A DNA stretch of 32,000 nucleotides from Vulcanisaeta distributa DSM 14429 (GTDB taxonomy: Archaea; Thermoproteota; Thermoprotei; Thermoproteales; Thermocladiaceae), in NCBI RefSeq assembly GCF_000148385.1, contig NC_014537.1, positions 660,001 to 692,000 of the forward strand, read 5' to 3'. Below the pieces are notes generated by a model. That model worked only from the letters and a program-made list of their open reading frames with translations, did no database searches and was not told where the DNA came from. Positions 24,556 to 28,575 of the stretch are shown piece after piece (the stretch's first letter is position 1; each line of letters begins with the position of its first letter). Both the position numbers and the translations under genes were made by a program.

Positions 24556-26124
24556 GTGAGGGTTGAGGTACTGGACACGACACTTAGGGATGGAGCCCAA
24601 ATGACTGGTGTTTCGTTCACGCTTAATGACAAGGTTAGGATTGCCCTGATGCTCGATGACCTCGGCGTTGATTACATAGAGGGTGGTTGGCCTGGCAGTA
24701 ATCCTAAGGATGCCGAGTTCTTTAAGGCGATGAGGAATTACTCACTAAGTCACGCTAAGCTTGCGGCCTTTGGTATGACTAGGAGGAAGGGCGTCAGTGC
24801 TAAGGATGACCTTAACCTGGCTGCTATACTGGATTCAGGCGTTGAGGTAGCGGTCCTGGTTGGTAAGTCCTGGATACTCCACGTTAGGGAGGTGCTTAGG
24901 GTTAGTCCTGAGGATAACCTGGACATGGTCTACGATAGTATTCGTTACCTTAAGGACCATGGATTGAGGGTAATCTTCGATGCTGAACATTTCTATCAGG
25001 GATTTAGGGAGGACCCGGACTACGCGCTTAGGGTTGTTAAGACTGCCGAGGAGGCTGGGGCGGATACCGTGGTCCTTGCGGACACAAACGGTGCCATGCT
25101 ACCCCACGAAGTTTACGAAATAACGGGTAAGGTTGTGAAGGAGTTAAGGGTTACGGTTGGCGTTCACATGCATAATGACTCTGGCTGCGCAGTGGCTAAC
25201 ACTATAATGGGTGTATTGGCTGGTGCGCGTCATGTGCAGGGAACCATTAATGGGCTTGGTGAGAGGACGGGCAATGCCGATTTAACCCAGGTAATACCAA
25301 ACCTAATGCTTAAACTAGGCTTTAAAGTGCTTAGGGGTATTGATGACCTCAGGAAGTTAAAGGTGATATCCAGGTTCGTCTATGAGGCGGCGGGTTTAAA
25401 CCCAAACCCGTACCAGCCATACGTGGGTGATTACGCCTTCTCCCATAAGGCAGGTTTGCACGTTGATGGTGTTTCCAAGGTAACTAAGGCTTATGAGCAC
25501 ATAGACCCCGAGCTCATTGGTAATACGAGGAGGTTCGTGGTTTCCGAGCTCGCCGGCTCATCAAACATACTCGTATACCTTAAGGACCTAGGCTTTAACA
25601 TAAGTAAGGAGGACCCGAGGTTAAGGCGTGCCCTTGAGAGGATAAAGGACCTTGAGAATAGGGGGTATAGCTTCGATTTAGCCCCTGCTTCAGCAATACT
25701 CATAGCCCTTAGGGAGATGGGGCTCTATAACGATATGTTGAGGGTTGAGTATTGGAAGGTCGTTAGTGATGATGACATGCACGTGGCCATAGTAAAAGTT
25801 AATGGAGAGCTTGGCGTCGCCGAGGGTGTTGGGCCTGTTCACGCAATTGATAAGGCGTTGAGGAGCGTCGCCTCCAAGTTATTCCCTGAACTCAATAATG
25901 TAAAGCTCACTGACTATAGGGTTATAATCCCTGGTGAGGTTAAGGGTACGGAGAGTGTAGTGAGGGTTCTCATGGAATTTGATGATGGAAGGACTAGGTG
26001 GAGGACTGTGGGTGTATCAACAAGTATAATCAAGGCAAGCGTTGAGGCGTTGAGTGATGGACTTAATTACATACTAATGATCCGTAATCACAATACCACG
26101 AAGGTAAATAATACAACGTATTAA
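24556..26124 (+). CDS. cimA: citramalate synthase-like / 2-isopropylmalate synthase, long form with C-terminal LeuA-dimer type regulatory domain
   Basis: 522 aa, GTG start. Motifs are LDTTLRDGAQMTGVSFTLNDKVRIALMLDDLGVDYIEGGWPGSNPKDAEFF (the GWPGSNPKD signature I associate with the CimA-type clade), HMHNDSGCAVANT, GTINGLGERTGNA and HKAGLHVDG, plus a ~140-aa C-terminal extension. Confidence 0.75.
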   Translation: MRVEVLDTTLRDGAQMTGVSFTLNDKVRIALMLDDLGVDYIEGGWPGSNPKDAEFFKAMRNYSLSHAKLAAFGMTRRKGVSAKDDLNLAAILDSGVEVAVLVGKSWILHVREVLRVSPEDNLDMVYDSIRYLKDHGLRVIFDAEHFYQGFREDPDYALRVVKTAEEAGADTVVLADTNGAMLPHEVYEITGKVVKELRVTVGVHMHNDSGCAVANTIMGVLAGARHVQGTINGLGERTGNADLTQVIPNLMLKLGFKVLRGIDDLRKLKVISRFVYEAAGLNPNPYQPYVGDYAFSHKAGLHVDGVSKVTKAYEHIDPELIGNTRRFVVSELAGSSNILVYLKDLGFNISKEDPRLRRALERIKDLENRGYSFDLAPASAILIALREMGLYNDMLRVEYWKVVSDDDMHVAIVKVNGELGVAEGVGPVHAIDKALRSVASKLFPELNNVKLTDYRVIIPGEVKGTESVVRVLMEFDDGRTRWRTVGVSTSIIKASVEALSDGLNYILMIRNHNTTKVNNTTY

Positions 26125-26357
26125 TAAATCATGCTACTCTGGACATTTAACAATTTAAATCAACGTAAATTCATTGCATTACTCAGCCTATGAGATGAGC
26201 CGTAAAATAGGCTTTATGGGTTATTATGTTTCGTTAATATTTCATTAAGGAGACTACAATCCCTAAGTAGTCCTAAGTAATCAATGCTAATTTACTACTT
26301 AGTTACTCGAATCACCGCACAAAAAGGAATAAGTGCTATGCCATGAGGGTGTTACGA

Positions 26358-26406
26358 GTGATGAATGCCGAGTTCGCAGAATGGTGAAGAGTCGGTTCTA
26401 TGCTGA
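26358..26406 (+). ncRNA. candidate C/D box sRNA (2'-O-methylation guide)
   Basis: C box GTGATGA (26358-64), 12-nt spacer, D' CAGA (26377-80), 4-nt loop, C' TGAAGA (26385-90), 12-nt spacer, D box CTGA (26403-06). This is a 49-nt unit with the canonical archaeal architecture and exact 12-nt guide spacing. It is intergenic. Confidence 0.5.
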
Positions 26407-26457
26407 ATTTAAGAAATAATGTGTCTGCCTTCGTAATAATCCATTGAGTCCTTCTAT

Positions 26458-26478
26458 ATCAGGGAAAGGCTTTTTACC
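26458..26478 (+). repeat. left copy of the 21-nt perfect direct repeat ATCAGGGAAAGGCTTTTTACC (core of a longer diverged repeat ~26340-26525)
   Basis: Exact match to 28473-28493 in the same orientation. Patchy collinear similarity continues on both sides. Confidence 0.9.
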
Positions 26479-26591
26479 CTCAATACGTGATTACGCACCA
26501 GTAGATGATGAGTTTAGAGCCCACTTTTATAGTAATTTGTTAAATTTTCTTATATCGGTTCGGTAAAGTAAGCCGTATGGGAAGAAATGTT

Positions 26592-27305
26592 TTATTGTGC
26601 CCGTGGGCCCTGGGCGGGGCAGTTTAGGTTAATCATCGCCTTGGTCACTGATCGAGCTCTCTCGATCTTACCTTCGTTCATTGTCTCATTAAGCATCCTC
26701 CTCAGAACCTCACAGACCTTAACGACCAGCACTGGATGTCTCACAATTTCGTCCTTGTTTATGAAGACCACAAATTTCTTACCTCGTTGAGATAACTTAG
26801 CATCGTAATCAGCCTTTTGTAAGGCTTCCTGAACCGCCTTTGCGTCCTCGAGCATACTACGGTTAATAACAAGTTCGATATACCCATTTCGAGTTACACG
26901 TATGCTCATTTGTACTCCATTGATGACCTCGACTGACGAGCTACCCTTCGGCTTAATCCTCGTGCTAGCTAGCGTCATTAGTTTTCTGAGCTTCATGGCA
27001 TCGGGTAGGGAGCTCAAGTCCTCAATCAAAGTCTTAATTAATGGATCATTAAGTCCCTTTCTAGTGAGCTCAACGGCTTTTGAGCTAGCAATTTTATAGC
27101 GTATTCTGGCCCTACGTTCATTGCGTTCATCATACCTGAATCCGATGGCTTTCATCCTCTCAATAATATCTTTCCACAAATTATGCTTCGGATTGCCAAT
27201 CGTGAGCCTAATCCTCTTCTTCTCAACATCGCCATCACCTAATACGGCAGATAGTAAAAAATATCGGGAATTTCTCATCATCAAGCTTGGATGCCTCCTC
27301 GGCAA
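26592..27305 (-). CDS. C-terminal part of the orphan gene; LAGLIDADG-like domain candidate
   Basis: This is the 237-aa track ORF, with TTG read as the start. FLLSAVLGDGDVEKKRIRLTIGNPKHNLWKDIIERMKAIGFRYDERNERRARIRYKIASSKAVELTRKGL resembles a LAGLIDADG helix followed by the beta-beta-alpha-beta-beta core. It probably continues the upstream ORF (see findings). Confidence 0.5.
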   Translation of the reverse strand: MPRRHPSLMMRNSRYFLLSAVLGDGDVEKKRIRLTIGNPKHNLWKDIIERMKAIGFRYDERNERRARIRYKIASSKAVELTRKGLNDPLIKTLIEDLSSLPDAMKLRKLMTLASTRIKPKGSSSVEVINGVQMSIRVTRNGYIELVINRSMLEDAKAVQEALQKADYDAKLSQRGKKFVVFINKDEIVRHPVLVVKVCEVLRRMLNETMNEGKIERARSVTKAMINLNCPAQGPRAQ

Positions 27306-28182
27306 CTTTAACCTTATTAGTGAATTTATTCCTATGATCGCGGGCTACTAAATACCACTTGATATTAACATCATTCACATTAAGATTCACGCCATATATA
27401 TGTACATAGTTTTCCCTGGGCCATGTCAGTATCCACATCACAGACTGCCAAAGCTGGTTCGTGCCCATCGTCGGATAATCGTGCGTAATTGAGGCATCGG
27501 TCATTAGCCAGCCGTACTGCATTGGCCTCAATGTATCGTCACTGAACAACTTGGAAGTTATGATGTTAGTACCCCTAGAGCCAACCAATGATATGTTTAT
27601 TGTTACGCCACTTCCTCTGATTTTAGTTATTGCGATTGAAAGATGGTCCGTGTATAGGTGCGCTATAAAACTCCTTTTGATATTGAATGGTTCGCCATTA
27701 ATGATCACTTTAACTTCTCTCTTCCTTAGCCCCTCGATTAATTTCTCGAGCTCTTTTCGGTATATTGTCAGCCACTTCTCCCTGGCTTGTTTTGCTAACG
27801 TGAGCATTTTCTCGCCAATGTTTATCATTGCCCTCCTCATCCTCATGATGTTTTCATCGTTGGTCTCCTTAACCTTCGTTTCCATCAGCGTCAGCCAGTT
27901 GCTTAGTTCGTTGATTGCCTTGTCGAATGGTGTGTTCGACTCACTCAACAATACATCCTTGCGTCTCTCGACTCTTTTCAGAAATTCGTTGATTAGCCTA
28001 TTGACCTCCTCGATTGTTTTTGGATCGTTGACTGGTTCGCCACACCTTAATCGCTTACCGCCCTCGACCTTGACGCCCCAGCAAATCCTTAAGCCGTTAA
28101 GAGCCATGGAGACATCCATAAGGTTATTCATCAACCGAACTAATAAGCCACTACCAACCCAGTGCTGAAATGGAATAAGCAC
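27235..28182 (-). CDS. N-terminal part of the orphan gene (K/E-rich helical region, then a W/Y-rich region); no family recognised
   Basis: 315-aa ORF with a GTG start; ATG alternatives lie at 28131 and downstream. It overlaps the next ORF by 71 nt, and a T6 run on the coding strand (27256-27261) lies inside that overlap. Confidence 0.5.
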   Translation of the reverse strand: MLIPFQHWVGSGLLVRLMNNLMDVSMALNGLRICWGVKVEGGKRLRCGEPVNDPKTIEEVNRLINEFLKRVERRKDVLLSESNTPFDKAINELSNWLTLMETKVKETNDENIMRMRRAMINIGEKMLTLAKQAREKWLTIYRKELEKLIEGLRKREVKVIINGEPFNIKRSFIAHLYTDHLSIAITKIRGSGVTINISLVGSRGTNIITSKLFSDDTLRPMQYGWLMTDASITHDYPTMGTNQLWQSVMWILTWPRENYVHIYGVNLNVNDVNIKWYLVARDHRNKFTNKVKVAEEASKLDDEKFPIFFTICRIR

Positions 28183-28211
28183 TTAATTGAAAGCCCTAGT
28201 CAGGTACGGGA

Positions 28212-28231
28212 GTAGGGCGTACAAGCCCTAC
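28212..28231. other. 7-bp stem / 6-nt loop hairpin (GTAGGGC gtacaa GCCCTAC)
   Basis: Perfect inverted repeat read directly, 30 nt upstream (in gene orientation) of the orphan ORF start. Confidence 0.6.
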
Positions 28232-28234
28232 ACT

Positions 28235-28348
28235 AACCTCACCTACCACACCCTCGACAACCCACCAACACCAGGAAAACGCTAAGAAAAATACACAACA
28301 CATACACACAAACAACGAAACAAACACAGAACAAAATTTCCCAAGCCC
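28235..28348. other. 114-nt strand-asymmetric A+C-rich tract (G+T-rich on the orphan gene strand)
   Basis: My count is 9 T and 8 G in 114 nt, about 85% A+C, with CA/ACA-type low complexity (ACACAACACATACACACAAACAACGAAACAAACACAGAACAAAA). Confidence 0.85.
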
Positions 28349-28472
28349 AGGTAGAGAGGGATTATGAAGCACTTAAGATTATGTTGAGTACCGAGTATAT
28401 CATCCGAGCGCAGACTCCCCTGCTGTGACGATAGGCTGAGGGGTTATGCTTGATTAAGTGGTTATGTTAATC

Positions 28473-28493
28473 ATCAGGGAAAGGCTTTTTACC
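28473..28493 (+). repeat. right copy of the 21-nt perfect direct repeat (core of a longer diverged repeat ~28390-28537)
   Basis: Exact match to 26458-26478. Confidence 0.9.
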
Positions 28494-28514: not shown

Positions 28515-28575
28515 GTGACGATTTTTTAGAGCCCGCTGATTGGATTTATTTCAATGATGAGTGGCTGAGCGCTGA
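28515..28575 (+). ncRNA. weaker candidate C/D box sRNA
   Basis: C-like GTGACGA (28515-21), 14-nt spacer containing TTTAGAGCCC, D' CTGA (28536-39), 14-nt loop, C' ATGATGA (28554-60), 11-nt spacer, D CTGA (28572-75). The boxes are present but the spacings are off-canonical. Confidence 0.25.

Follow-up and report, generated by a model that had tools for sequence, protein, structure and literature searches.

A frameshifted gene of a multi-copy LAGLIDADG endonuclease-like family in lineage-specific DNA of Vulcanisaeta distributa

The DNA analysed here (the window) comprises 32,000 nucleotides of the Vulcanisaeta distributa DSM 14429 chromosome (NC_014537.1, positions 660,001 to 692,000 of the forward strand), and between positions 26592 and 28182 its minus strand carries two overlapping open reading frames (ORFs). 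We conclude, with a probability of about 0.7, that these are one gene of a Vulcanisaeta-restricted, endonuclease-like protein family, that the gene is broken by an extra T, that it lies in lineage-specific DNA and that this copy was likely inactivated recently.

The two ORFs (26592..27305, 237 aa, and 27235..28182, 315 aa) overlap by 71 nt, and the overlap includes a T6 run of the coding strand (A6 on the plus strand) at 27256-27261. Deletion of one T yields a 529-aa fused product with the junction ..DDEKFPIF|LLSAVLGDGD.., and all of these elements, as described in the first-pass annotation, are present in the sequence. The repaired protein aligns with uninterrupted paralogues from end to end. 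As 22 homologues span the junction in the alignment, the full-length ones being single ORFs there, the split is no chance effect, and the proposal of one gene divided by an additional T is borne out. Intact paralogues read ..ATA TTT TTA CTA.. (I F L L) at the site of the run, to which the window copy adds one T. From M22 onwards the upstream ORF is 100% identical to Vdis_0702 (294 aa) of V. distributa DSM 14429, and the true start is likely the ATG at 28119 (M22) or that at 28107 (M26, MALNGLRICW).

26592..28182, minus strand: frameshifted gene (Vdis_0702 and the downstream ORF), from the ORFs, their repair and the alignment with paralogues
27256..27261, minus strand: T6 homopolymer with one T more than the intact paralogues, from the sequence and the paralogue alignment

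An AlphaFold model of the full-length protein, computed from the family alignment, had a predicted local distance difference test (pLDDT) of 83.4 and a predicted template modelling score (pTM) of 0.71. Compared by Foldseek with the Protein Data Bank (PDB) and with viral models, it matched almost only LAGLIDADG homing and intein endonucleases, with I-DmoI aligned over its whole length. The secondary structure of the model comprises three successive α/β units, A (residues 215-300), B (305-395) and C (396-480). The core pair was sought by AlphaFold2 modelling of residues 208-398 alone with 38 diverse homologues, and the resulting sub-model (pLDDT 95.7, pTM 0.91) displays the LAGLIDADG topology twice. 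Foldseek comparison of the sub-model with the PDB gave 29 matches at E<=1e-3; all 50 matches listed are LAGLIDADG proteins (probability 0.99-1.00), among them the following, for which template modelling (TM) scores are given where noted.

WhiA N-terminal domain (3hyi/3hyj): E 3.3e-5 / 5.6e-5
TliVMA intein endonuclease: E 7.9e-5
I-Tsp061I: E 1.2e-4
I-DmoI: TM 0.55-0.60 over 180-190 columns, whole chain

Units A and B (residues ~208-398) are therefore, on these models, predicted to form a monomeric double-LAGLIDADG domain of the I-DmoI / I-Tsp061I type. The motif IFLLSAVLGDGD, which had been suspected of being LAGLIDADG-like, is a genuine one, the fold searches giving essentially only LAGLIDADG endonucleases and WhiA. 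The earlier pairing of its unit with a second one (MSIRVTRNGYIELV..) did not hold: units B and C were considered as the LAGLIDADG pair and rejected, the sub-model of A and B forming the canonical core, and the MSIRVTRNGYIELV.. unit is a third, accessory domain. The frameshift occurs between the two subdomains, where the second LAGLIDADG helix begins.

27562..28107, minus strand: family-specific N-terminal ~180 aa, from the model and the alignment
26988..27561, minus strand: double LAGLIDADG core, residues ~208-398, predicted from the sub-model (pLDDT 95.7) and Foldseek against the PDB
27487..27516, minus strand: LAGLIDADG motif 1, YGWLMTDASI, residues 223-232, in the upstream ORF; from the alignment, D229 invariant
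27228..27261, minus strand: LAGLIDADG motif 2, FLLSAVLGDGD, residues 308-318, at the start of the downstream ORF; from the alignment, D316 and G317 invariant
26595..26996, minus strand: C-terminal accessory part, from the model and profile comparison

In Pfam the query matches only LAGLIDADG_WhiA (E 0.022; 15.3 bits vs a cut-off of 23.2). Among family members this profile matches 8 of 23 weakly, LAGLIDADG_3 reaches E 1.2e-4 and weak LAGLIDADG_2 matches also occur; a single member, P0086, exceeds the LAGLIDADG_3 gathering score (27.9 vs 22.5). The family profile matches I-Tsp061I (E 0.007), with '..avLGDGsv' aligned to the second motif of that enzyme, 'FIDGDGWV'.

The N-terminal region consists of a conserved CWG..RLxCGE hairpin, long helices (54-153) and a five-strand β region (158-209), and no family or structure match was obtained for its ~180 aa. 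The first-pass annotation had recognised nothing in the N-terminal ~300 aa, which stands for these ~180 aa and fails for the LAGLIDADG helix 1 (YGWLMTDASI, with D229) that the longer segment contains. The C-terminal part comprises the third β-β-(β)-α-β-β unit (residues ~396-482), two helices and a conserved LNCPxQGPRA tail; unit C is weakly similar to unit B (hhalign probability 54%), and its match to the WhiA-type LAGLIDADG domain is sub-threshold. The N-terminal region and the third domain may add DNA contacts or promote oligomerisation. P0086, a distant member of 594 aa on a 4.1-kb NCBI contig, has an additional C-terminal copy of the third-domain unit.

Four columns alone are invariant across 35-38 members, whose identities go down to ~20%: D229, Q246, D316 and G317. 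D229 (..LxTDGS..) and D316 (..LGDG..) are present in all 38 aligned members, the window copy included, and K332, pseudo-symmetric to the ..TNQLWQ.. segment, is kept in 29 of the 38. The residue after D229 is G in most members but A (A230) in the window copy. In active LAGLIDADG enzymes the base of each of the two motif helices bears an acidic residue (D20/21 and E117 of I-DmoI), and loss of the acidic residues separates the domesticated regulator WhiA from active homing endonucleases (Taylor and Stoddard, PMC3384342). The two LAGLIDADG helices end at D229 and D316, putative metal ligands, and the pattern of invariance is that which purifying selection on a two-metal LAGLIDADG active site would give. 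Because the aspartates, Q246 and G317 are invariant across such diverse members, we infer that intact members would be sequence-specific, Mg2+-dependent DNA endonucleases that cleave or nick, or at least site-specific DNA binders.

Judged from the models, the closest systems in mechanism and structure would be the monomeric archaeal intron endonucleases I-DmoI and I-Tsp061I. Both sides have thermophilic crenarchaeal hosts, the conserved glutamine of the family follows β2 of subdomain 1 as does Q42 of I-DmoI, and the similarity to I-DmoI extends over the whole chain. However, the intron endonucleases are encoded in rRNA introns and have ~190 aa, whereas the family proteins have ~500 aa, with the ~180-aa N-terminal region and a ~130-aa C-terminal extension, come from free-standing intergenic genes with 6-8 diverged copies on the chromosome of each genome, and resemble known LAGLIDADG families below the Pfam cut-offs. 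The yeast HO endonuclease is likewise a LAGLIDADG enzyme outside any intron or intein and with extra domains; HO is intein-derived and retains Hint-domain remnants, whereas no intein-like region was detected in the family.

The family might instead be a domesticated, non-catalytic LAGLIDADG DNA-binding or regulatory protein like WhiA (DUF199), the paralogues being fast-evolving host genes. WhiA is the best structural match of the core and accounts for most of the weak Pfam matches; it too is a host-encoded, free-standing LAGLIDADG protein with added domains, and the N- and C-terminal domains of the family recall its extra helix-turn-helix (HTH). None of the genes resides in an intron or intein, synteny between strains is seen for some copies, and the conserved promoter/leader described below suggests common regulation. 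WhiA, however, is bacterial, lacks the catalytic acidic residues and has a C-terminal HTH (PMC3384342), whereas the archaeal family keeps both aspartates, plus a glutamine, in all of its diverse aligned members and shows no HTH or WhiA family match at cut-off. Multiple copies, differences in presence and absence and fast divergence (76% identity in one syntenic pair vs 88% in its flanks) also fit a selfish or conflict-driven gene better, and a WhiA-like role appears unlikely, although it deserves serious consideration.

Searches with the repaired protein found 23 homologous proteins with 47-64% identity, and those that are named all come from Vulcanisaeta (V. distributa, V. souniana, strain JCM 16161 and metagenome-assembled genomes, MAGs). 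An exhaustive profile search extended the family to 203 cluster representatives at E<=1e-3, among which 69 reach E<=1e-30, and the gene, once labelled an orphan, is thus nothing of the kind. Named representatives belong to Vulcanisaeta, apart from one partial 'Infirmifilum' MAG protein, and the remainder are mostly from metagenome assemblies (ENA) or read-run assemblies (Logan). Counting paralogues, as the first-pass annotation had proposed, gave at least five intact ones on the same 2,374,137-bp chromosome, four of them full-length (P0001, P0003, P0005 and P0014, each a single ORF) and the fifth, Vdis_1223, more divergent; species-representative genomes hold 3-8 copies. The family has no Pfam domain on record and no match in NCBIfam or PHROGs, and literature searches found no description of it. 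On sequence evidence, the family is a Vulcanisaeta-restricted, multi-copy and unannotated set of free-standing proteins of ~500 aa.

Both halves of the window copy are otherwise open, with no further lesion and every conserved family residue kept, and for this reason the frameshift is either recent or a homopolymer sequencing error. In the latter case the real gene would be an intact family member of 504-508 aa. The full retention of invariant and near-invariant residues agrees with such an error, as does the intactness of the other copies in finished genomes (L019, L032 and L034). Contigs assembled independently by Logan from the strain's reads, anchored on S10 and cimA, end at 28054 and at about 26628, just inside the gene. 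Homopolymer errors are, moreover, rampant in related drafts: in the JCM assemblies (BBBI, BBBJ, BBDM and BBDN; L001-L018, L023 and L025) nearly every family copy is in 2-4 pieces. The same drafts split housekeeping genes too, namely those for peptidase M16 and argininosuccinate synthase (L023 vs L022; L025 vs L024), so that their split family copies are not evidence of decay. Against an error in the window copy, the DSM 14429 genome is finished, its deposited annotation accepts the break by ending Vdis_0702 as a 294-aa protein, and a run of six bases is short to persist as an error after polishing. We consider the error improbable on this balance, and a true, recent frameshift the better reading. 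It would place the two LAGLIDADG subdomains on separate polypeptides, and because of this separation the window copy is most likely non-functional and only recently inactivated.

It is very improbable that the T6 run is a programmed +1 frameshift, a transcriptional-slippage site or a phase-variation site, giving either the full-length enzyme or two halves that reassemble. Both ORFs are intact, and the break falls exactly between the LAGLIDADG subdomains, so that the halves could in principle form a heterodimer. Paralogues in finished genomes, however, read through the site with different codons, which makes the shift unique to the window copy and speaks against the earlier suggestion that it might be programmed, as well as against a shift common to the paralogues; a family-wide programmed shift was rejected on the same grounds, full-length paralogues and finished-genome copies being single ORFs across the site. 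For the downstream ORF, in addition, neither a start nor a ribosome-binding context is conserved among family members, and six Ts are few for slippage to be efficient.

The gene lies in an intergenic region between a cimA/leuA-like gene (24556-26124) and the gene for ribosomal protein S10, and is the only coding cargo of ~2 kb that other Vulcanisaeta lack at the same site, as had been proposed. A perfect 21-nt direct repeat, ATCAGGGAAAGGCTTTTTACC, stands at 26458-26478 and 28473-28493 (spacing 2015 nt), and small RNA (sRNA) genes of the C/D-box type adjoin it; BRE in the list denotes a B recognition element.

26358..26406, plus strand: C/D-box sRNA-A, with C box GTGATGA at 26358 and D box CTGA at 26403
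26458..26478, plus strand: left 21-nt repeat, with BRE/TATA-like AAAGGCTTTTTA, from the sequence and comparison with the empty site
26458-26524, plus strand: truncated duplicate of sRNA-B, with the left repeat, C box ATGATGA (26505) and guide GTTTAGAGCCC, from sequence comparison
26479..28472, no strand: ~2.0 kb absent between sRNA-A and sRNA-B/S10 in other Vulcanisaeta, from comparison with other loci
28473..28493, plus strand: right 21-nt repeat, the promoter of the complete sRNA-B, from the sequence and comparison with the empty site
28515..28575, plus strand: C/D-box sRNA-B, with C GTGACGA at 28515, D' CTGA at 28536, C' ATGATGA at 28554 and D CTGA at 28572

Read along the plus strand, the order is the cimA/leuA-like gene, sRNA-A, the truncated sRNA-B duplicate, the family gene (minus strand), sRNA-B and S10, with unique sequence of 64 nt before the family gene and of 280 nt after it. 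In at least five other Vulcanisaeta assemblies, retrieved via the S10 protein, the order is EF-1alpha-S10-sRNA-B-sRNA-A-peptidase M16, without the family gene, the empty site corresponding to L022:6313-6630. There the peptidase M16 gene follows within 318 nt after S10, the spacer containing two C/D-box sRNA-like genes, and the 21-mer, the sRNA promoter, occurs once. The boxes and both guides of sRNA-B are conserved in other Vulcanisaeta loci (L022:6430-6491, minus strand), with a different internal spacer, and sRNA-A is 87.5% identical to the sequence adjoining sRNA-B at the empty site of other species. Synteny breaks just past sRNA-A (window ~26125-26358 vs L022:6586-6630), beyond which stand the cimA/leuA-like gene here and two peptidase M16 genes with argininosuccinate synthase in other Vulcanisaeta. 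The unique flanks (26125-26590 and 28190-28475) have no match in the other loci except sRNA-A and the 21-mer. In Rfam, sRNA-A gives a sub-threshold sR2 match (18.4 bits); nothing in the whole window reached a gathering score, the sub-threshold C/D-box matches all lying near the repeats, and a tRNA search found none. In other Vulcanisaeta, PaREP1-family genes occur at a distance of a few kb from S10 (L022:12291-12312, L026:5415-6531 and L027:5824-6312).

The empty site in relatives supports a lineage-specific insertion. The first-pass annotation had described a repeat-bounded insertion, of which the 21-nt repeat and the ~2-kb segment are real, although the repeats prove to be the promoter and 5' part of an sRNA gene and not the termini of an element. 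Some 67 nt of the sRNA-B 5' part are duplicated, and the duplicates have diverged outside the 21-mer and a 10-mer; distances of 110 and 280 nt separate the repeats from the conserved gene unit (26588-28193). A search around 14 other copies found no direct repeats of >=12 nt that bracket and abut the gene, the single 12-nt pair of L019 being 683 nt downstream of the stop codon, and no C/D-box sRNA genes were found adjoining other copies. Because the duplicates have diverged, the repeats do not abut the unit and the other copies lack repeats, the locus bears no transposon signature.

What the paralogues share at the DNA level is limited to 26588-28193, which takes in the ORF, 4 nt beyond its stop codon and a 5' leader of ~90 nt.

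28108..28193, minus strand: non-coding 5' leader common to at least nine paralogues, from DNA comparison

The leader starts sharply at TTTCAAT, has the layout TTTCAAT..TGCTTAAG..GTGACTTATTAG..ATGGATGTC..ATGGCTCT, and was seen upstream of copies L001, L007, L009-L011, L013, L015, L016 and L019. It is conserved above the coding DNA (~73-81% identity to the window leader and 68% mean column identity, vs ~65% for coding DNA), and the TATA-like GTGACTTATTAG (~28140-28150) precedes the ATGs by about 25-40 nt. The leader probably serves the paralogues as a common promoter, operator or regulatory site. Upstream of the leader (28200-28345), the sequence GTAGGGC-GTACAA-GCCCTAC (28212-28231) makes a perfect hairpin, and there is a long tract rich in CA, or in GT when read on the gene strand; the L015 copy is also preceded by a GT-rich tract like that of the window.

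As the ~2 kb of lineage-specific DNA are enclosed by a C/D-box sRNA gene that is partly duplicated, cassette mobility fits the locus: a cassette of promoter/leader and ORF may have moved in the past by endonuclease-stimulated or illegitimate recombination, and not by transposition. A bolder version, which we hold to be doubtful, is that intact members are active, hyperthermostable, free-standing endonucleases that move as promoter-plus-ORF cassettes, here into a C/D-box sRNA gene whose 5' part was duplicated, with the leader or an sRNA-type site as recognition or autoregulatory site. If true, it would represent a chromosomal homing system in Crenarchaeota, independent of introns and inteins, with a new three-domain architecture.

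That the gene belongs to PaREP2a/PaREP2b (PaREP2b has been called a putative transposon; PMC3558965), as the first-pass annotation had wondered, or is a transposase-type insertion sequence bounded by the 21-nt repeats, is scarcely credible: like the Pyrobaculum PaREP2 families it is a lineage-specific Thermoproteales multi-copy family, sometimes disrupted and in variable genome regions, and a direct repeat brackets the window copy, but Pfam PaRep2a/PaRep2b matched neither the query (E<=10), nor the 23 sequences of alignment A1 (the query's 22 relatives included; E<=1), nor 10 distant members (E<=0.01), 33 members in all, and the repeats are an sRNA promoter present once at the empty site. Transposons and insertion sequences in general were rejected, there being no transposase domain and, in the 14 other copies searched, no target-site duplication and no bracketing direct repeats of >=12 nt next to the gene.

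The reading that we prefer, one recently inactivated gene of an endonuclease-like family in lineage-specific DNA, has several points weighing against it. The extra T may be a homopolymer sequencing error, the strain's Logan contigs breaking at both gene ends. The TM-scores to solved endonucleases are moderate (0.5-0.6, root-mean-square deviation ~5 Å), the best Foldseek match of the core is the non-catalytic WhiA, and the query falls under every Pfam LAGLIDADG cut-off. Nuclease activity is deduced indirectly for every member, and a counterpart of the basic residue K120/K130 of I-DmoI was not placed in the family. The difference may also stem from a deletion in the relatives, through recombination between the repeats, and not from a gain in this lineage. 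The closest paralogue is only 63% identical to the window copy, so that no donor copy was identified, and other copies lack target-site duplications or flanking repeats, some of them being syntenic, so that any recent mobility is conjectural.

For the annotation of the window, the outcome is that two hypothetical ORFs become one disrupted gene and that two C/D-box sRNA genes, so far without annotation, are added. More widely, ~200 'hypothetical protein' clusters of Vulcanisaeta and hot-spring metagenomes become recognisable by a LAGLIDADG core with conserved aspartates in a new, larger architecture. Should members be active, they would offer hyperthermostable meganuclease scaffolds and an instance of archaeal homing-endonuclease genes that persist without residing in an intron or intein.

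Several further observations concern individual copies. The syntenic copies L014:4001-4519 and L018:4001-4515 (JCM 11217 and JCM 11216) share ~91% identity over the 3' two-thirds and the flanks, while the 5' ~500 nt of this orthologous pair, encoding the N-terminal region, are unalignable, which suggests module replacement or gene conversion. The P0098 cluster (Vdis_1223 and V. souniana proteins) retains at least 90% identity between DSM 14429 and V. souniana, far above that of other paralogue pairs, as could result from strong constraint or from recent transfer. SSO2105_N-domain genes occur near two other family copies (L032:6711-7784 and L034:9809-10888). Finally, 40 nt downstream of the P0014 copy of DSM 14429 lies a 307-aa ORF (L019:7586-8509) whose sole domain is MoCoBD_2; it is possibly a piece of a molybdopterin oxidoreductase large subunit.

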